The position numbers and the translations under genes were made by a program. Below the pieces are notes generated by a model. The model made no database searches and was not told the origin of the DNA. It was given only the letters and a program-made list of their open reading frames with translations. Source: Escherichia coli (GTDB lineage: Bacteria > Bacillota_I > Bacilli_A > RFN20 > CAG-826). From it: 64,000 bases of DNA. Of the stretch, positions 2,517 through 44,892 are shown one piece after another (positions within the stretch are counted from its first letter, which is position 1; each line of letters opens with the position of its first letter). Location of the stretch: assembly GCA_963630675.1 (NCBI GenBank), contig CAVGNR010000010.1, positions 15,685 through 79,684 of the forward strand, written 5' to 3'.

Positions 2517-4933
2517 GCAAAGAATATTTCCTTTAAACGAAGAAGCAAGCCAAAGCAACTGCCCGCTTTCATACCATCAAAGGAATCGAAATTAAGGCAA
2601 AGACACACGAATGCGGATATAAGCATTATGAGGAAGCCTCCTCCTAATACCCAATTTTGTACAGGCGTATCTTGAACTCTTTTTTGTAATTGCAAGAAAG
2701 TAAAGACAGAGATAATCGTTGCAAGATGGAAGAATTCAATTAAATAACGTGGGCAAACGCCTGCTTTAGAATAGGTTGTAAAAGCAAAAAAGAAGAGGAA
2801 GAAAGGGAAAATGATACCCATAATTTTCTCCGGGTTTTTAGCCTTTTTTAAGAAAAGGAAAGGTGCAAATAAACTTAACCAGAAGAAAGGGACCCCCAAT
2901 AAACCATAACAAGAAGAGACGTATGGGGCTAAAGCAGTGCTTTCAAAGCTATAACGTTGCACAGTGCAAGATATATAAGGGAAGACGTTATAGAAATTAC
3001 CCCCTTGGCAAAAGAAATGGAAGAAGGTTGGAAGAAGCTTTTCTGCCGAATAAGAAAGATATCTTTGATCGGTGATATTTAACTGATAAGATTGACCAAA
3101 CTCAAAAATAGAATCGAAACGAGCATAATTATATAAACAAGCAAGGATTCCTCCTGTAAGCAAGATTAGGAACATCGGAAGGAATTCGATGACTTTCTTT
3201 TTAGCGGAGGCCTCTTTTTCACGTAATATCCCCAATAAGAAAGGAAGAGCAAGCAATAATCCCAAAAACAAATTTGGGCGGCTAAAAACAAGAAAAACGA
3301 AAGATAATCCAGCAAGTGCTAAAGGAAGAATACGAAGTTTCTTTTTGCGATAAGCATGCAAGATAAAACCAAAGAAAAGGTCAAAGAAAGCCAACCCATA
3401 TATATCAGGAACGTGATAAATCGCTTCATGATAAACTCCATCCTTCCAAGTGTAGGCAAGAATCATCATGGAGGTAACACTTCCGAGGATAGCAAAGAAA
3501 AGATATTGTACCCAATCAAATTTCTTTTGCATGAGTTGGAAAATCTCAAGCAATACAAATAAGAAGGAAGGAATTAAAATAGCCATTCCGATGGTTTCTA
3601 ATCCGAAAGCCGTTAAAACATAACGCATTCCCGTTAAGAAATAAAAAGGGAAGGAAATTAAAAGGACAGGCATTGGCCCATAATAAGAATAATATTTGCC
3701 ATTATAGAAAGCATGGTCCCAATAATAGGAAACATTCGCCCAGCTTCTTTCTGAAGGATTCCAAGGGTTCTTTAAGGATAATAGTTTGGGATCAACAGCC
3801 AAATCCAAATCGATTCTCCCTTTTCTAAAAGCGTCGAAAAGAGAAACGAATATATCCGTTTTCCCGGTGGTAGAAGATATATGGGCATGAAGATCTTCGG
3901 TGGAAATAGGGTAGGGTGTAGCAAAATCAGCTATATTGCCCACCATATAGAAGAAAGTCCCTAAGATTAAAAGACAGGCAAATCCACCTAATATTAGATA
4001 AGGGGTTCTCTCTGAGATTTCTTTTCTGTTTCTATTAAGGAACGTACTTAAAGAAGAGAAGAAAAGCACAACGATGGAAAAGCTTCCAAATCGAAACAAA
4101 GAAAAATGAAAACGAAGGGGGACGTTTAGCGAAAAAGAAGAAAGAATGGCATTCGTAGGTGAGGCATAATATTCATCTTGGAAAGAAAAATCGATACGGT
4201 ATGCCTTGATTGTTTCTTCTGGATAAGTAGGCAAAGATAAGACATTAGAATTCCCGTTACTCGTATCAAGAAGGTAGTTTCCACCTTCACTGAAATTCAC
4301 TAAATCGGTAGAAAAAGAGATTTTTGCCTTAATGGTTGCTCCATTTCTTTCGGAGAAATTCAAATAGATGTTCTTCGGCTTCTCTTCTTCCCCCCAATTT
4401 AAGATGAAATAAGACCTATTCTGTAATTGGATACGCCCATCTTCTAATTTTTCATAGTTTCCTGATATGACAGAAGAAGTGCTAAGCGCATCAAAAGAAT
4501 AAGCATTCCCTCCTAAAGGATAGGCTTGGAGGTTGCTTGTAAAGCTTTCTAAGAAGATGCCTAGTAGGAGTAAGGAAGAGCATATCAGCTTCTTCTTGCT
4601 TGGCTTATTGCTTTTCCAAGGAAAGAAACGATAAGGATGAATGATAAGCAATAGAAGAGAGAGAAAGAAAAAAGGTAATGTCCCATTTAAGTAAGGGAAA
4701 CGAGGGAAACAGAAATAGAAAATCAAAGCAAAAAGAAAGCCTAAACCGAAAGGAATTCCGTAGCGGTAAAGATCGTCTTTAGAAAAAAGAGACTCCGAAG
4801 AATGTTCTTTTTTCTTCTTGAAAAGATGGCAAAGGAAATAAGCAAGAAACGCGATTAAATTTCCTAAAAACCAACTTAAAAATGCCATGGCAAAATTATA
4901 ATCCATGAAGATAAAGGTAAGCAACAAACCCAA
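2504..4933 (-). CDS. large polytopic membrane protein with an extracytoplasmic domain, possible GT-C glycosyltransferase
   Basis: 809-aa ORF with about 20 hydrophobic segments and a soluble insert around residues 140-290. It converges on the GT2 gene with a 13-nt overlap. The track start is TTG; an ATG alternative lies at 4906. Confidence 0.45.
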   Translation of the reverse strand: MGLLLTFIFMDYNFAMAFLSWFLGNLIAFLAYFLCHLFKKKKEHSSESLFSKDDLYRYGIPFGLGFLFALIFYFCFPRFPYLNGTLPFFFLSLLLLIIHPYRFFPWKSNKPSKKKLICSSLLLLGIFLESFTSNLQAYPLGGNAYSFDALSTSSVISGNYEKLEDGRIQLQNRSYFILNWGEEEKPKNIYLNFSERNGATIKAKISFSTDLVNFSEGGNYLLDTSNGNSNVLSLPTYPEETIKAYRIDFSFQDEYYASPTNAILSSFSLNVPLRFHFSLFRFGSFSIVVLFFSSLSTFLNRNRKEISERTPYLILGGFACLLILGTFFYMVGNIADFATPYPISTEDLHAHISSTTGKTDIFVSLFDAFRKGRIDLDLAVDPKLLSLKNPWNPSERSWANVSYYWDHAFYNGKYYSYYGPMPVLLISFPFYFLTGMRYVLTAFGLETIGMAILIPSFLFVLLEIFQLMQKKFDWVQYLFFAILGSVTSMMILAYTWKDGVYHEAIYHVPDIYGLAFFDLFFGFILHAYRKKKLRILPLALAGLSFVFLVFSRPNLFLGLLLALPFLLGILREKEASAKKKVIEFLPMFLILLTGGILACLYNYARFDSIFEFGQSYQLNITDQRYLSYSAEKLLPTFFHFFCQGGNFYNVFPYISCTVQRYSFESTALAPYVSSCYGLLGVPFFWLSLFAPFLFLKKAKNPEKIMGIIFPFFLFFFAFTTYSKAGVCPRYLIEFFHLATIISVFTFLQLQKRVQDTPVQNWVLGGGFLIMLISAFVCLCLNFDSFDGMKAGSCFGLLLRLKEIFFAYNF

Positions 4934-5202: not shown

Positions 5203-6678
5203 ATGAAAATTAACGAGCTATTTCCAGAAATAGATAATGAAAATTATGGTGTAGAATTGAAGGCTCGCTTATTAACTGGTCTCGATAAGCAAGGCAACGA
5301 TAACGAATTGAAATGGCTGAAGGAAATTGTTGCTTTCGCTAACACTCAAGGAGGCACCTTATTTGTGGGCGTTAACGATAAAACCCATGAATTGGAACCG
5401 TTAGATCATTCTGGGATTGATGAAGCAGCAAGACTTCTCTATCAAAAAGTGGAAGAAAGAATAGAACCTGATATTTCCTTAAGAATCAAAGAAATAAGCT
5501 TAGGTAAGGCATATAAAGATCAATATATTCTTCGTATCGATGTTGAAAAATCAGAAAAAACCCCTGTCTATGTTCATGTAAATGGGATACCTGTGTGTTA
5601 TATTCGTCAATTCGGTAGAGCGAAAACGGCCACCCCTGAACAAATTGCTCAGCTTGTTGTGAAATCCACAAGGATTGCATACGATTCGGTTTTGACTGAT
5701 GAAATCTATAAGGAAAAAGACTATCAGAAGTTAATTGCTAAATATGAAGAAACGAATCCTGGAAAAAAACTAGATGATAAGACTTTGATTTCTTTCGGAT
5801 TTATGAATAATGAAAAGCGTCTCTTTAAAGGTGCCTTATTATTCAAAGATAATTGCGAAGATTTAATAACTCTTGCTAAATGCTCTGTCTATCCTGGTTT
5901 TGATAAAGGCGGGAATGTTGTTTCCGCCTCTCAATCATATCAGGGATGTCTTATATCGGTCATTTACGAAGTTGTTGACTTTGTTAAAAACCATTCCACG
6001 ATTGGCTATAAAAAAACAAATGATTCGAGGATTGATCTCTCTTCTTATCCAGAAAGAGCGTTGTTTGAAGGGGTGGTTAACGCATTCGCTCATCGAAATT
6101 ATTTTATTTTTGGTTCAGAGATACAGTTTGATATTTTTAAAGACCGCCTAGAAATCACTTCGCCAGGATCGTTACTTGGTGGAAAGAACTTAGAACAAGA
6201 AAAACAAATTAGCCAAATTATGCCAAAAAGAAGAAATGAGCTTATTTGCAAAATACTGGAGTCTTTGCACATGATGGAAGCCAAAGGGACGGGCTTTGAT
6301 AAAATCGTTGAAGATTATCGTCAAGCTAAAGAATCTCAAAAACCATTTGTTAGTTGCAACGATGATTATTTTACTTTGACATTACCTGATTTGACCTTCC
6401 AAAAAGGGGTACTTGGTGAAGGCAATCCTTATCCTGAAATCCATCTTTTAAGGGAAATTGCCTCTTCCTACGATGAGAGAATTCTTTCTTGCTGTTACTT
6501 AAAGGAAAGAGCGATCACTGAAATTGCCTCTTTTTTACAAATATCTTCCTCTTCTCATCTTAGAAACGATATTCTCGAAAAACTAGTTGAAGAAGGATAT
6601 CTTTTTAAAACACAAAAAGGAAAAACGTTCTTTTATCTAACCAATAGGGCGAAGCTCGAAAAAGAAAATGCCATCTAG
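5203..6678 (+). CDS. Schlafen/AlbA_2-domain putative DNA-binding regulator (COG2865-like, C-terminal wHTH)
   Basis: RBS AAGGAGG upstream. N-terminal ELKWLKEIVAFANTQGGTLFVGVND is typical of AlbA_2. The central NAFAHRNY...ITSPG region and the C-terminal winged-helix-like tail fit this family. Confidence 0.7.
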   Translation: MKINELFPEIDNENYGVELKARLLTGLDKQGNDNELKWLKEIVAFANTQGGTLFVGVNDKTHELEPLDHSGIDEAARLLYQKVEERIEPDISLRIKEISLGKAYKDQYILRIDVEKSEKTPVYVHVNGIPVCYIRQFGRAKTATPEQIAQLVVKSTRIAYDSVLTDEIYKEKDYQKLIAKYEETNPGKKLDDKTLISFGFMNNEKRLFKGALLFKDNCEDLITLAKCSVYPGFDKGGNVVSASQSYQGCLISVIYEVVDFVKNHSTIGYKKTNDSRIDLSSYPERALFEGVVNAFAHRNYFIFGSEIQFDIFKDRLEITSPGSLLGGKNLEQEKQISQIMPKRRNELICKILESLHMMEAKGTGFDKIVEDYRQAKESQKPFVSCNDDYFTLTLPDLTFQKGVLGEGNPYPEIHLLREIASSYDERILSCCYLKERAITEIASFLQISSSSHLRNDILEKLVEEGYLFKTQKGKTFFYLTNRAKLEKENAI

Positions 6679-40567: not shown

Positions 40568-41350
40568 ATGGGGAAAAGAGTCACAAGCATTAAGGAAAAC
40601 AAAAAGAAAAAGACCTTTGAAGTATCTTTTGGCTTAGAAAAACTCACTTTATCTGAGGATGCTTTCACAGATTATCTTCTTTATGTTGGCAAAGAAATTA
40701 GCTCGTCCCTTTTTCTTCTAATGAAAAAGGAATCGGAATTAGAAGGAATATACGAATATGCGTTATCTCTTCTTAGCAAAGGTTCTTATAGTTCCTACGA
40801 AATCGAAGAGAAAATCAAAAAGAAACTCCCTGAAGGAGAAACTCCTTATCCTATCTTGAAACGTTTACGGATGAATCATCTGCTTAACGATGAGGAATAC
40901 GCCAAAGAATACAAAGAGGAAAAAGAGGAGCAAGGATACGGTTCTATCCGTATTCGCGACGATCTTTTGAAAAAGAAGAGGATTTCCTTAGATATCGTGG
41001 ATTCCCTTTCTTTCCAAAATGAAGAAGAGAAAGCCAAAGCCATTGCTTCATCAATGGAGAAAAGACTAGAGACATATCCTTTGAAACAAAAAAGAGAAAA
41101 AGCCATTTCTTGTCTTCTTAGACGTGGCTTCCCAATGGAGACTTGTCTTGAAGCAGTTTCTTCTTTCCGAGAAAACAAAGAAGAATCAAGAAAACGATTG
41201 GAAAGAGATTATTCTTTATTAAGAAAACGTTACGAAAAGAAATATTCGGGATATGCTTATAGGCAACATTTATTTGAAGGCCTTCTTCGAAGAGGATATA
41301 ACAAAGAAGATATTCAAGGAATAATGGAGGAAAATATATATGATGATTAA
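40568..41350 (+). CDS. recX: RecX-like regulatory protein
   Basis: Start at MGKRV just after the GT4 stop. It has repeated three-helix modules, and LNDEEYAKEY...GYGSIRIRDDLLKKKRIS is a RecX-type pattern. Confidence 0.6.
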   Translation: MGKRVTSIKENKKKKTFEVSFGLEKLTLSEDAFTDYLLYVGKEISSSLFLLMKKESELEGIYEYALSLLSKGSYSSYEIEEKIKKKLPEGETPYPILKRLRMNHLLNDEEYAKEYKEEKEEQGYGSIRIRDDLLKKKRISLDIVDSLSFQNEEEKAKAIASSMEKRLETYPLKQKREKAISCLLRRGFPMETCLEAVSSFRENKEESRKRLERDYSLLRKRYEKKYSGYAYRQHLFEGLLRRGYNKEDIQGIMEENIYDD

Positions 41351-42290
41351 AGATTTAAAAGATGGCGATCATATCGTCAGCCAATACCTCATCGTGAATT
41401 TTGCTAAATGCGTGACTACGGCTGGGAAAAACTATTTGAATTTAACATTACAAGATTCTACTGGCAGTATCGATGGTAAGAAATGGGATGTGAATGAAGA
41501 AGATTTAGATACCTTCTTACCAGGAAATATTGTTTCCATTGAAGGGGATGTGCTCAATTATCGTGACCATCTTCAAATGAAAATTCTTTCGGGAAAGAAG
41601 CTTGAGCAAGACCAAATTGATGTGACTCGTTTTGTACCAGCTGCCCCCGTTCCAGAAAAAGTCTTAGAAGAAAAACTTAATGCCTATATCGATTCCTTAA
41701 AAGATTCGGATTTAAAAACCATCACCAAATACTTGATTCAAAAATACCATGATTGTTATGTTTCCTATCCAGCCGCGGTAAGAAACCATCATAATTTTGC
41801 TTCAGGTCTTCTTTACCACTCTATTTCGATGGCGGACATGGCGGAAAAAGTCTGCACCCTTTATCCGGAAATCAACCGTGATTTCGTTATTGCAGGGGCT
41901 TTAATCCATGACTTAGGAAAGACATTGGAATTATCCGGTCCTATTGCAACAAAATACACCCTTGAAGGAAAACTTCTTGGTCATATTTCCATTATGGTCG
42001 CAGAGATCCGTATGGCAGCTAAAGAATTACATACTGATGGAGAAACCCCGTTGTTATTAGAACATATGATTCTTTCCCACCATAGCAAGCCTGAATTTGG
42101 CTCACCCGTTCCTCCATTAACCAGAGAGGCTTTTGTTCTTGCTTCTATCGATGATTTTGATGCCAAAATGAATATCATCTCGAAAGCGGAGGAAAACCTT
42201 AAACCAGGAGAATGGACAGAAAAAGTCTTCGCGATGGATAATCGCGCTTTCTATATTCCTGAATACAAGCAAAATCCAAACGACAAATAA
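41340..42290 (+). CDS. yhaM: 3'-5' exoribonuclease YhaM (OB-fold plus HD domain)
   Basis: N-terminal OB-fold region (NYLNLTLQDSTGSIDGKKWD) and HD domain (HHNFASGLLYHS, IHDLGK). Confidence 0.85.
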   Translation: MMIKDLKDGDHIVSQYLIVNFAKCVTTAGKNYLNLTLQDSTGSIDGKKWDVNEEDLDTFLPGNIVSIEGDVLNYRDHLQMKILSGKKLEQDQIDVTRFVPAAPVPEKVLEEKLNAYIDSLKDSDLKTITKYLIQKYHDCYVSYPAAVRNHHNFASGLLYHSISMADMAEKVCTLYPEINRDFVIAGALIHDLGKTLELSGPIATKYTLEGKLLGHISIMVAEIRMAAKELHTDGETPLLLEHMILSHHSKPEFGSPVPPLTREAFVLASIDDFDAKMNIISKAEENLKPGEWTEKVFAMDNRAFYIPEYKQNPNDK

Positions 42291-42309
42291 GAATCCCCCT
42301 TCTTAAAAA

Positions 42310-42333
42310 GGCTCTCCAAAATCTAATGGGGAT
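42310..42333. repeat. left terminal inverted repeat GGCTCTCCAAAATCTAATGGGGAT
   Basis: Exact reverse complement of 43794-43817. Similarity continues inward at about 75% for about 20 more bp, including a small hairpin. Confidence 0.9.
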
Positions 42334-42647
42334 AGCGATTTTTGCCATCCCCATTAAAAGCTACAAAGCCTCTTTTGCCTACAAGTTGATATTCTGCTCT
42401 CTTAGAGCAATTAATACATACGAAAAGGTGATAATTAAGATTGGAGAAGTTCTTTTCATCGACGATAGCAATCAGATCCATGACACTTGATAGAGCAAAA
42501 AGAAATAAAGGAGAGACTTTTGATTCAGTTTATGATTCGAGAGCTTTTTGTTTATATAAAACTTTTGGCAAGATTACCGATTTTATTCTCGTAATTCATT
42601 GACTATTCTCGTAAAAAGCACTATAAAATACGAGAAAAGAGTTAAAA

Positions 42648-43697
42648 ATGAGAGAATTCGATTATAAAAAATTTGTAAATTGTAAATGGGATAACGCAAT
42701 CATCGAGTACCTTGTCAAAATTCACGAGATGAAAGGCAGGCAAGAGTTATACCTTTCTCAAAAGAAATTGGAACTTGACAGGCTTGTTGAAATTGCAAAG
42801 ATTCAAAGCACGGAAGCTAGCAATGCGATTGAGGGTATCGGAACAACGGAAACAAGGCTAAAGCAATTGATTTTACAAAAGACGGCACCGAGAAACCGAA
42901 ACGAAAAAGAGATTGCTGGATATCGTGACGCACTTGCCACAATTCATGAGAGTTTTGAGTATATTCCGATAACTCCGAACTATATTTTGCAACTTCACAA
43001 GATATTGTTTTCCCACAATACTGAGGCGACTTTCGGAGGTTGTTTCAAGAACTCGCAGAATGAGATTTCCGCTATAGACGAAAAAGGGAATAAGGCCGTT
43101 TTGTTTGTGCCGCCTGATCCGTTTGAAACACCGATAGCGATAGAAAATCTTTGCAAAACATTCAACGAAGTAATGGAAGATGGGCGCGTGGACCCGCTCT
43201 TGCTGATACCTATCTTCATACACGATTTTCTTTGCATTCACCCTTTCCGTGACGGCAATGGCAGGATGAGTAGACTTCTGACAACGTTGCTTTTGTATCG
43301 CTCGGGATATTTTGTTGGCAAGTATATATCGCTTGAAAGCAAAATCGCAAAATATAAGGATCTGTATTACGACGCATTATATGACAGCCAAATCAATTGG
43401 CGTGAGGGGGAAGACGATCCGACTCCCTTCATAAAATATATGCTTATGACGATTTATTCCGCATATAACGATTTTGAAGAAAGACTGAGCCTTGTCGGCA
43501 AGAAGAAAACGGCAACGGAACTTGTCGAAAGTGCATTCGAAGCTAAAATCGGAAAACTTACGAAATCTGACATTGCAGAGCTTTGCCCGACGATTTCCGT
43601 CAGTGCGGTTGAAAAAGCGATAGCGGCCTTGATAAAGAATGGAAAAGTCAAAAAATACGGCCAGGGCAAAAACACGTATTACGTGCTACTAAAATAA
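42648..43697 (+). CDS. Fic-family protein (class II, N-terminal inhibitory helix, C-terminal wHTH)
   Basis: HPFRDGNGRMSRLL active-site motif, inhibitory SNAIEG ((S/T)xxxE(G/N)), and a C-terminal winged-helix-like tail. Confidence 0.9.
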   Translation: MREFDYKKFVNCKWDNAIIEYLVKIHEMKGRQELYLSQKKLELDRLVEIAKIQSTEASNAIEGIGTTETRLKQLILQKTAPRNRNEKEIAGYRDALATIHESFEYIPITPNYILQLHKILFSHNTEATFGGCFKNSQNEISAIDEKGNKAVLFVPPDPFETPIAIENLCKTFNEVMEDGRVDPLLLIPIFIHDFLCIHPFRDGNGRMSRLLTTLLLYRSGYFVGKYISLESKIAKYKDLYYDALYDSQINWREGEDDPTPFIKYMLMTIYSAYNDFEERLSLVGKKKTATELVESAFEAKIGKLTKSDIAELCPTISVSAVEKAIAALIKNGKVKKYGQGKNTYYVLLK

Positions 43698-43793
43698 TTA
43701 TTCTCATAAAAACATAATAAAATTACGAGAAAGCGAAATAATGAGAGAAAGCATTTAGGTTATCCAAAAATCGATGGGGGTAACGAAAAATCC

Positions 43794-43817
43794 ATCCCCA
43801 TTAGATTTTGGAGAGCC
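43794..43817. repeat. right terminal inverted repeat ATCCCCATTAGATTTTGGAGAGCC
   Basis: 24/24 reverse complement of 42310-42333. Confidence 0.9.
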
Positions 43818-43826
43818 CTTAAAAAT

Positions 43827-43861
43827 AAGGATGTTCCCTTGATAAGATAAGGAACATCCTT
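43827..43861 (-). terminator. terminator hairpin downstream of the LacI-family gene
   Basis: AAGGATGTTCC...GGAACATCCTT 11-bp stem with T-runs on both strands. Confidence 0.7.
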
Positions 43862-43863
43862 TT

Positions 43864-44892
43864 TCATTTTGAAGTGTTGTTGGTGTTTTTAAGGGGACCC
43901 GTTGATTCTCCTTTAATGAAGCTTGCTTCGACTTTGATTAAGCGTTTAGGGGAATTCTTATTCTCCATCTGCCTGATTAATTCGTCAGCAAGGCTTCGAC
44001 CGATTGCTTTCGTGTCTTGCTTTATCGTTGTGATAGTAGGGCAGACAATTTGCGAGAAAATGGTTCCATCAAATCCCGTTATTGAAATATCCTCTGGGAT
44101 AGATAAGCCCATTTCTTTGAGGGTTTTCATTCCTTCGACCGCACTTAAATCGTCAGGGAACATGATGGCTGTCGGTGGAACGATTCTTCTGAGAATATCG
44201 CGTGTTAGATTTTTGACTTTGGCGTTGTCTAGATAATCGCTTTGGACAAAAGAACGTTCATTAAATGGGATGTTTCTTTCCTTGAAAGCGTCTTTGAATC
44301 CTCTCATTCTTTCTCTTGTAACAAAAGAGTCTTCACCATGGATAAAGACGATATTTCTATGACCTAAAGAGATTAAATGAAGAGTTAGCTCTTTCATTTT
44401 TTCGTAGTTATCAATGGAAACCCCAGACATTTTATCGCCAATATAGTCAAAGGCAACGGAAGGTATTTCACTATCGATCACCTCTCTGATTTCAGGGGAA
44501 TTTAGATCGCCGAAAAGCAAAGCCCCAGCAACATCTCTTGAGACACAATTCTCATAATAGCTGCCCTCTTGTCCTGCAACGTTTGAGGAGACGAAAAGAA
44601 GATCATAGTTTTTTGCGTTCATCTCTTGTTGGAAGGAATCTAGAATTTCGGTGAATAGTGGATGTTTAAAAGGGGAAACGTCCATTCTTAAATAGGCTAA
44701 AACACCCACATTGTAGGAATGGCCTTTGGAGAGAGCTTTTGCGCCTGTGTTAGGGATGTAATTAAGCTCACTCATCGCCTTTCTTACTTTTTTCTTGGTG
44801 TCTTCAGGAATGGAGCTGTAGTTGTTTACAACTTTAGAGACTGTCGAAGGAGACACTCCCGCTTTGATTGCAATGTCATAAATCGTTATCAT
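43864..44892 (-). CDS. LacI-family transcriptional regulator
   Basis: Start MITIYDIAIKAGVSPSTVSKVVNN (HTH_LacI) with RBS GGAGGAG. ATGA overlap with the upstream GH30 stop. Confidence 0.9.
   Translation of the reverse strand: MITIYDIAIKAGVSPSTVSKVVNNYSSIPEDTKKKVRKAMSELNYIPNTGAKALSKGHSYNVGVLAYLRMDVSPFKHPLFTEILDSFQQEMNAKNYDLLFVSSNVAGQEGSYYENCVSRDVAGALLFGDLNSPEIREVIDSEIPSVAFDYIGDKMSGVSIDNYEKMKELTLHLISLGHRNIVFIHGEDSFVTRERMRGFKDAFKERNIPFNERSFVQSDYLDNAKVKNLTRDILRRIVPPTAIMFPDDLSAVEGMKTLKEMGLSIPEDISITGFDGTIFSQIVCPTITTIKQDTKAIGRSLADELIRQMENKNSPKRLIKVEASFIKGESTGPLKNTNNTSK

Follow-up and report, generated by a model that had tools for sequence, protein, structure and literature searches.

How does a single Fic gene come to lie between two convergent core genes, enclosed by the matching ends of a mobile element that encodes no transposase? 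This question is raised by a 1508-bp element (42310-43817) in a 64,000-nucleotide stretch of contig CAVGNR010000010.1 (assembly GCA_963630675.1, positions 15,685 to 79,684; hereafter the window). We find that the element is most probably a non-autonomous mobile insertion cassette (MIC) formed from two ends of an ISL3-family insertion sequence (IS), which carried a phage Fic gene into the chromosome. We put the probability of this reading at about 0.77.

Termini and target site of the Fic element

The element is bounded by the 24-mer GGCTCTCCAAAATCTAATGGGGAT, which occurs at 42310-42333 (+) and 43794-43817 (−). At up to three mismatches these two are its only matches in the window; 100 shuffles yielded none, and the number of matches expected by chance is zero. 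Directly outside both termini stands the same 8-mer in direct orientation, CTTAAAAA, read from the sequence as the left (42302-42309) and right (43818-43825) copies of a target-site duplication. The window is AT-rich and holds 20 copies of this 8-mer against 14 expected; at the base composition of the window, the chance of identical 8-mers beside given termini is approximately 2.5 × 10−5. Both the perfect inverted repeat (0 mismatches between copies) and the direct 8-mer had been described in a first-pass annotation made from the letters of the window, and both were confirmed.

Each end of the element is a longer palindromic unit (repeat, loop, repeat), in which the 24-bp repeat is accompanied by an inverted subterminal copy. 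A search for repeat pairs resolved the left unit (42310-42375, +; 66 bp) into the outer repeat at 42310-42333, a 13-nt loop and the inverted subterminal copy at 42352-42375; this unit folds with −23.1 kcal/mol (z = −4.2). The right unit (43758-43817, −; 60 bp) likewise combines the outer repeat at 43794-43817 with an inverted subterminal copy, and folds with −23.7 kcal/mol (z = −4.6). Cargo and ends meet at one junction where GAGAGAAAGCATTTA is followed by GGTTATCCAAAAATCG and at another within 42360-42400. Between the left unit and the first recognizable phage DNA, a stretch of around 100 bp (42376-42479) significantly matches neither IS remnants nor phage sequences. Rfam searches returned only subthreshold matches to generic hairpins.

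No significant transposase or transposase remnant was found inside the element or anywhere in the window by tblastn with 67 ISL3-type transposase fragments, in agreement with the earlier reading of the interior. A transposase C-terminus had been suspected by eye at 42323-42481 (−); tblastn gave it no support, and it was dropped.

A YhaM-like gene with an OB fold and an HD domain (41340-42290, +) flanks the element on the left and a convergent LacI-family gene (43864-44892, −) flanks it on the right, so that the gene calls on both sides bear out the position assigned to it at the outset. In silico removal of the element and one 8-mer leaves a 65-bp yhaM-lacI spacer, which runs from the yhaM stop codon through an A-run and a 14-bp stem to a T-run entering the lacI stop codon, and which folds with −17.8 kcal/mol (z = −3.2). 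By its inverted repeat and its fold, this spacer is a bidirectional terminator that predates the insertion (hairpin at 43824-43864), and the element entered the A-tract just upstream of the stem. The proposal of a transposition-type insertion is upheld by the 8-bp duplication, by this clean rebuilt target site and by the occurrence of the same termini elsewhere with 8-bp duplications of their own.

Relatives of the ends and assignment to ISL3

ISL3-family elements generate 8-bp target-site duplications (ISfinder) and have terminal inverted repeats of approximately 15 to 40 bp with a GGCTCT-type tip. The perfect 24-bp repeat of the Fic element begins with GGCTCTCC; variant tips are GGTTCTCC in L014 and GGCTCTGT in L021 and L003 (L numbers denote loci and P numbers proteins). 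The duplication matches at 8/8 positions in the window, 8/8 in the pair L015/L009 and 7/8 in L014, and a cognate transposase is represented by gene remnants within elements that have the same termini (L014, L024 and L011).

These relatives came from a scan for a 20-mer of the terminal repeat in one genome per species and in metagenomes. The 20-mer is present at the same locus in 'uncultured Mollicutes bacterium UMGS237' (L012 and L007), a genome that carries the Fic element and also, at a second site, a separate IS remnant of approximately 280 bp (L011). In Bacillales bacterium UBA743 (L014) it bounds a 476-bp element flanked by ATTTTATT and ATTTTATC. It was further found at the contig tips of L009, L013 and L015 (GenBank CAVKFY01, 'Alistipes communis' bin H07683-L1), which have 35 to 37% GC and are almost certainly mis-binned contigs of a low-GC bacterium. 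Beside the terminus, L015 and L009 both have AAAGATTT, and joining them restores a stop codon with its terminator behind it; the two contigs thus flank a single insertion, the interior of which was left unresolved by the assembler. L024 to L033 represent a 414-bp derivative of the same IS. No recognizable target duplication was seen at L024 or L021, and four further matches to the 20-mer (L008, L010, L019 and L020) were set aside as apparent chance hits. Thus, the suggestion that other copies of the termini be sought was productive, with copies at further loci and in other gut genomes. The transposase-bearing master that was to be sought with them did not emerge: the genome and metagenome scans returned no full-length element with these exact termini, only derivatives, contig-edge tips and the four apparent chance hits. 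The 20-mer had no match in viral contigs, where a hairpin-based pattern retrieved 67 generic terminator hairpins and none resembling an IS end, and the whole element had no match in plasmid records.

Alignment of the ends separates them into two types. Type A, with a GATGAATGGGGAT repeat, comprises the left end in the window, L012, L004, L013, L015 and the right end of L014. Type B, the IRL (left inverted repeat) hairpin of the IS, lies upstream of the transposase gene and comprises the right end in the window, L007, L009 and the left ends of L014 and L024. Three independent insertions pair the two types and have an 8-bp duplication each, and the type A end on the left of the Fic element would correspond to the right end of the IS (IRR). 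The right terminal unit in the window is 85 to 89% identical over 52 to 62 bp to the left ends of L014 and L024, which are ISL3 deletion derivatives, and to L009. The left ends also vary in a 10-bp GATGAATGGG unit (window position 42334; L012, 7755-7764; L004, 4772-4781), present in UMGS237, L004, L013, L015 and L014 and absent from the window, L001, L003 and L034. This is a slippage polymorphism between GGGGAT repeats. The right end of L021 has an analogous tandem repeat, so that the unit may be a regular feature of that IS end.

Inside these termini, L014, L024 to L033 and L011 enclose remnants of one gene, in which the N- and C-termini of a transposase are brought together by internal deletion. 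The N-terminal part reads MDSNSFLLSFGM or LRPEDFGRTDGPIESDEGF up to CPKC, and the C-terminal part ends with IDGAYGY and NFERLRKRLLLMRRSKKK. Homologous fragments extend into the zinc ribbon, the helix-turn-helix and the DDE domain. Three of them exceed the Pfam cutoff of 23 bits for DDE_Tnp_ISL3 (PF01610; P0133, 51 bits; P0136, 50 bits; P0124, 25 bits), and P0147 has a weak match to Zn_ribbon_ISL3. The only other Pfam matches of the remnant homologues, PF14690 and PF13542, are likewise to ISL3 models and fall below the gathering cutoff. An exhaustive HMMER search recovered full-length relatives of approximately 420 aa; the nearest of these, P0189 (422 aa), scores 70.5 bits with PF01610, and its sole NCBIfam match is transpos_ISL3 (NF033550), at 122 bits and below the cutoff of 180. 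Because elements with the same termini hold transposase remnants whose relatives pass the Pfam ISL3 threshold, assignment of the ends to an ISL3-family IS is supported, if indirectly, at the level of sequence, and what was initially a guess at the family is strengthened accordingly.

A word-index search of 5.8 billion proteins yielded 67 relatives (P0121-P0187), the above fragments among them. These relatives (loci L021-L033 and L039) are in-frame fusions of the N- and C-terminal parts, pseudogene pieces or contig-edge fragments, and P0138 is located at a contig end. The exclusively short relatives are consistent with a repeat that breaks short-read assemblies, and the lineage appears in short-read gut metagenomes almost only as deletion derivatives. 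The fragment P0136 had no tblastn match in plasmid records.

The Fic protein and its phage-derived surroundings

The only long open reading frame (ORF) inside the element (42648-43697, +) encodes a protein of 349 aa with a Pfam Fic match of 68 bits. An inhibitory motif, SNAIEG (residues 58-63), lies N-terminal to the Fic core, and the active-site motif HPFRDGNGRMSR (residues 198-209) is invariant in 26 homologues, as are S58 and E62; residue 63 is variable. Both the inhibitory helix and the active site of a class II Fic protein are present, as the first-pass annotation had recognized. What it missed is the likeness of the protein to SoFic, a reported anti-phage type. The PADLOC SoFic model matches with 5.5 × 10−43 over residues 18-346 (profile positions 25-350 of 361). 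The AlphaFold model (pLDDT 81) ends in a helix-helix-helix-strand-strand arrangement that is winged-helix-like, and Foldseek aligned it with the SoFic structures 3eqx, 3zec and 3zcn over 350 to 369 columns (TM 0.53-0.62). Together, PADLOC and Foldseek indicate the full-length SoFic architecture, including the C-terminal winged-helix-like domain. Among Protein Data Bank (PDB) entries, 8uqu matched with 7.7 × 10−70 and SoFic with 2 × 10−7.

SoFic has been reported as a stand-alone, single-gene anti-phage system (10.1101/2022.05.11.491447) and as a toxic AMPylase that acts by abortive infection (PMC12249575). The motifs of the Fic product predict an AMP-transferase that Glu62 of the N-terminal SxxxEG helix would hold in an auto-inhibited state, and homology with SoFic suggests that it acts as a toxin or an abortive-infection defence. 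By the same analogy, it probably served in its phage context to exclude other phages. The ratio of nonsynonymous to synonymous substitution rates (dN/dS) is approximately 0.06 relative to homologues of 88 to 90% identity; within the species it is noisy, ranging from 0.08 to 0.79 on 9 to 30 substitutions. One of these homologues (90% identical; L005, 2539-6009) has no IS ends and stands beside a PhdYeFM/ParE toxin-antitoxin pair and an AbiEii gene, a setting that is defence-island-like.

The DNA around the gene points to where it came from. BLASTN of the element against phage records matched a single place, 42480-42558 (+), with 88.8% identity over 80 bp to the end of a gene in Anaeroplasmataceae phage NatCom_34063 (PV036447.1). 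That gene, recorded as 'hypothetical protein', lies directly upstream of the portal gene; this position and its sequence make it a putative large terminase gene (terL), and the window translation MTLDRAKRNKGETFDSVYDSR aligns with the C-terminus of its product. In L037, which derives from another organism, an 88% identical Fic homologue directly follows a degraded terL (tblastn, 1.6 × 10−45), and homology to L037 spans 42545-43757, ending exactly at the base of the right terminal hairpin. Fic homologues of 50 to 62% identity occur in 16 viral contigs; in 8/16 the gene lies within approximately 200 bp after terL (L043-L047 and L050-L052), and in two further contigs (L048 and L049) terL is approximately 1.3 kb upstream.

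At the protein level, the homologues in IMG/VR contigs L043 to L052 show 56 to 59% identity. The layout of L045 is terL (1259-2917), Fic (3001-4047) and a copy of the terL 3′ end (4055-4279). The last 72 or so terL codons are repeated after Fic in L044 and L045, and a 25-codon copy (residues 462-486) stands at the contig edge of L046. In such phages, Fic appears to have been inserted into the terL 3′ end as an accessory gene.

Upstream of Fic, a promoter and operator-like region (42586-42647, +) contains TTCTCGTA at 42586 and 42606 and the inverted TACGAGAA at 42629. By eye, a promoter-like site is formed by TTGACT (42599-42604), 17 nt and TATAAA (42622-42627); a consensus promoter scan did not list it because the −10 hexamer lacks the final T. 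The region is conserved before the 88 to 90% identical homologues in L005 and L037. It is a matter of speculation that the TTCTCGTA and TACGAGAA boxes are an operator for the C-terminal domain of Fic itself. Downstream of the gene, direct repeats reveal a diverged second copy of the Fic 5′ region (43699-43757, +), comprising TTCTCATAA, TTACGAGAA, ATGAGAGAA and a stop after five codons, which forms the right edge of the cargo. This repeat of approximately 50 bp (42604-42655 versus 43699-43750) takes in the ribosome-binding site as well as ATGAGAGAA and the palindrome from TTCTCGTA to TACGAGAA. Fic is followed by such a repeat in L037 too; tandem Fic genes may have left it behind, or it could serve as a second operator.

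The phage matches thus resolve the interior into a terL remnant, Fic with its promoter, and five codons of the ORF that follows, and at the level of sequence they show that the cargo is phage-derived, an origin that had gone unnoticed in the first reading. A truncated terL in the yhaM-lacI spacer, together with the 8-bp duplication outside both ends, means that the whole block is best explained by one transposition event.

History of the cassette and its place among known systems

The sequence of events that we favour would begin in a prophage. A 1.38-kb fragment with the terL 3′ remnant, the promoter, the SoFic-like Fic gene and the start of the following ORF would have become enclosed by IS ends there, before the cassette moved. 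Two palindromic units may have bracketed Fic in that prophage, or else the phage fragment took the place of the interior of a single IS; the 60- and 66-bp units could be either independent miniature elements or the natural ends of one IS. A related full-length IS would then have supplied an ISL3 DDE transposase in trans, recognizing the identical 24-bp termini, and the whole 1508-bp unit would have inserted into the A-tract upstream of the yhaM/lacI bidirectional terminator, with duplication of CTTAAAAA. Like other MICs, the element holds a passenger gene between IS-related repeats, without a transposase and with a flanking target duplication.

The subsequent history can be followed in other assemblies. 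In every one of the eight same-species contigs that extend to the position of the element (L001-L004, L017, L034-L036 and L038), the site is occupied, and the Fic ORF is intact in 6/6 that cover it. Perfect 24-bp termini and both duplications are kept in the window, L034 and UMGS237. Of the six contigs that cover Fic, three (L003, L004 and L038) have a damaged right end, through two distinct lesions. In L003, where Fic is 99% identical, the right repeat (6147-6170) has four clustered changes (GGCTCTGTGAATTC) and the right CTTAAAAA is missing; in L004 and L038, the inner part of the right hairpin has been lost between GAGAG microhomologies. L004 has also lost 84 bp from the inner arm of the left unit to approximately 42448. 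The changes in L003 resemble another repeat subtype of the IS lineage (L021 and L039), and a related IS end may have converted this one or recombined with it. In a sliding-window profile, the locus diverges as a mosaic of 0 to 7% in which Fic is no outlier, so that the element shows no sign of being younger than the strains sampled; a recent Fic sweep, with lower synonymous divergence than in yhaM and lacI, was considered and dropped on the same profile. Independent metagenome assemblies break at an identical base, 50 nt into Fic, or approximately 60 nt inside the right end (ends of L001/L002 and of L035/L036), a pattern suggestive of more than one coexisting Fic variant or strain in these samples. 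It looks as if the cassette moved once and is now retained for its cargo while its ends decay, and it now behaves as a resident chromosomal gene.

Several observations weigh against the cassette reading, or against parts of it. No sequence internal to the IS is detectable between the terminal hairpins, unlike in all other derivatives examined. Neither mobilization in trans nor copies at several sites can be pointed to: the Fic/IS-end junctions are known from a single locus, and none of the same-species contigs places the cassette at a second one. The close Fic homologues in L005 and L037 (88-90% identity) have no termini. An empty yhaM-lacI site, the check proposed in the first-pass annotation, was not recovered by exact-protein look-ups with YhaM, LacI (347- and 342-aa starts) and near-identical Fic, which returned only occupied or truncated loci, and 8/8 same-species contigs are occupied. 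On the transposase side, none of the 67 word-index relatives is full length (all ≤146 aa), and P0189, the nearest full-length relative, is only 48% identical over the N-terminus. As for the cargo, the NCBIfam SoFic equivalog model (NF046030) gives 61 bits against a cutoff of 550, a result that does not bear out orthology with Shewanella SoFic.

Could the Fic fragment have reached the locus by another path? The element may never have carried Fic between sites: a small ISL3 remnant could have settled at CTTAAAAA first, with the phage fragment entering later between its ends by illegitimate or hairpin-mediated recombination. Small derivatives of the IS are indeed common, one of them in the same genome as a Fic element (L011), the cargo starts exactly at the base of the right hairpin, hairpin bases are plausible end-points of recombination, and the Fic junctions are known from one locus. 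This path requires, however, that a 1.38-kb phage fragment precisely replaced the whole interior of a small element and left both terminal units intact, with no 5′ or 3′ remnant of the transposase gene, whereas every other derivative examined keeps one; a Fic-less version of the locus was seen in 0/8 same-species contigs. We consider such an origin in place unlikely. A cassette that is still mobile, with a master ISL3 copy in the same population and a defence gene spreading between phages and chromosomes, seems just as improbable. It would agree with the perfect termini and paired duplications in the window, L034 and UMGS237, and with contigs of one gut sample whose breaks, 30 to 55 bp inside identical termini, suggest that an element is present there in several copies. 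Set against it are the single known locus, the damaged right ends of L003, L004 and L038, the lack of a transposase in the window and the count of exact 20-mers in UMGS237, where two of only three belong to the Fic element. A bolder version is slightly less improbable and still doubtful. It takes the 60- to 66-bp end units to be free-standing miniature elements, any two of which, with a rarely assembled master transposase, would move the DNA between them and routinely shuttle phage accessory genes (SoFic-like genes, for example) between prophages and chromosomes of gut Anaeroplasmataceae-like bacteria, with this cassette as a still-mobile example.

Explanations that dispense with ISL3, or with transposition altogether, fare far worse. 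A GGCTCT or GGTTCT tip and an 8-bp duplication are not unique to ISL3, so that the termini might belong to another 8-bp-duplicating family with GG(C/T)TCT tips, such as IS6/IS26-like elements or IS1595; the remnant homologues match ISL3 models only (PF01610, PF14690, PF13542 and NF033550), and we regard this as very unlikely. Less credible again is the idea that there was no transposon, and that the two arms once made up an old palindromic terminator or are repeats that merely happen to surround a native Fic gene. A real terminator does adjoin the insertion and each arm can form a hairpin, but no match to the 24-mer is expected by chance, the interior holds a truncated piece of phage terL, and in other genomes, at unrelated loci, ISL3 remnants are enclosed by the same termini with 8-bp duplications of their own. 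This last observation refutes the halves of a terminator, and we give the idea as a whole almost no credence.

The cassette reading is of interest for what it implies about gene acquisition. It documents a route by which a phage Fic gene can become a stable chromosomal gene: IS ends capture it, a single transposition places it at a harmless site beside a terminator, and it persists after mobility is lost. It also indicates an ISL3 lineage in uncultured human-gut Mollicutes-like bacteria that is mostly seen as fragments in short-read assemblies. For annotation, it exemplifies the cargo-carrying, transposase-less elements that escape transposase-based tools. The cassette reveals no new mechanism; it is a clear but ordinary example.

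The first-pass annotation had called a cargo-carrying non-autonomous element that mobilizes an AMPylator-type Fic gene unusual, which is overstated, because cassettes with IS ends on both sides and no transposase form a recognized class (PMC4337579, PMC4133298). Named MICs include the IS231-derived MIC231 of Bacillus cereus and the TnXax1-derived MICs with transcription activator-like effector (TALE) or type III secretion effector (T3SE) genes in Xanthomonas (PMC4337579). The Fic cassette resembles them in its inverted repeats flanking a passenger, its missing transposase, its family-typical target duplication and its presumed mobilization in trans. It differs in that its ends are ISL3 ends with an 8-bp duplication rather than those of IS4/IS231 or Tn3 (5 bp), that each end is a complete palindromic unit, that its cargo is a phage fragment with Fic and that a single copy at a single locus is known. 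Passenger genes also occur in ISL3 members such as ISPpu12 (PMC4133298). With the IS of this family, the Fic element shares the 8-bp duplication, the AT-rich target and repeats of approximately 24 bp starting with GGCTCT, and its relatives encode a DDE_Tnp_ISL3 transposase with an N-terminal zinc ribbon; unlike them, ISPpu12 included, it has no transposase at all, and it belongs to a lineage far removed from the ISL3 copies of plasmid records, among which tblastn found no match.

Mosaics flanked by Tn3-derived miniature elements, of the TIME-COMP type (PMC4133298), offer a third parallel, in that two short inverted-repeat units bracket unrelated DNA and the whole has a single target duplication, although the TIME-COMP units are Tn3-derived and have 5- to 6-bp duplications. 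The cargo itself is like SoFic (3eqx and 3zcn) in its class II organization, N-terminal SxxxEG helix, HPFxDGNGRxxR site and C-terminal winged-helix-like domain. It is unlike Shewanella SoFic in its identity of only approximately 20%, in its score below the NCBIfam equivalog cutoff, in that no AS1-like antitoxin ORF was recognized after Fic and in that Fic genes of this lineage are typically phage-borne beside terL. The kind of element is therefore known; what is new here is its combination of ISL3-derived ends, a phage-derived, SoFic-like cargo and an uncultured gut Mollicutes-like host.

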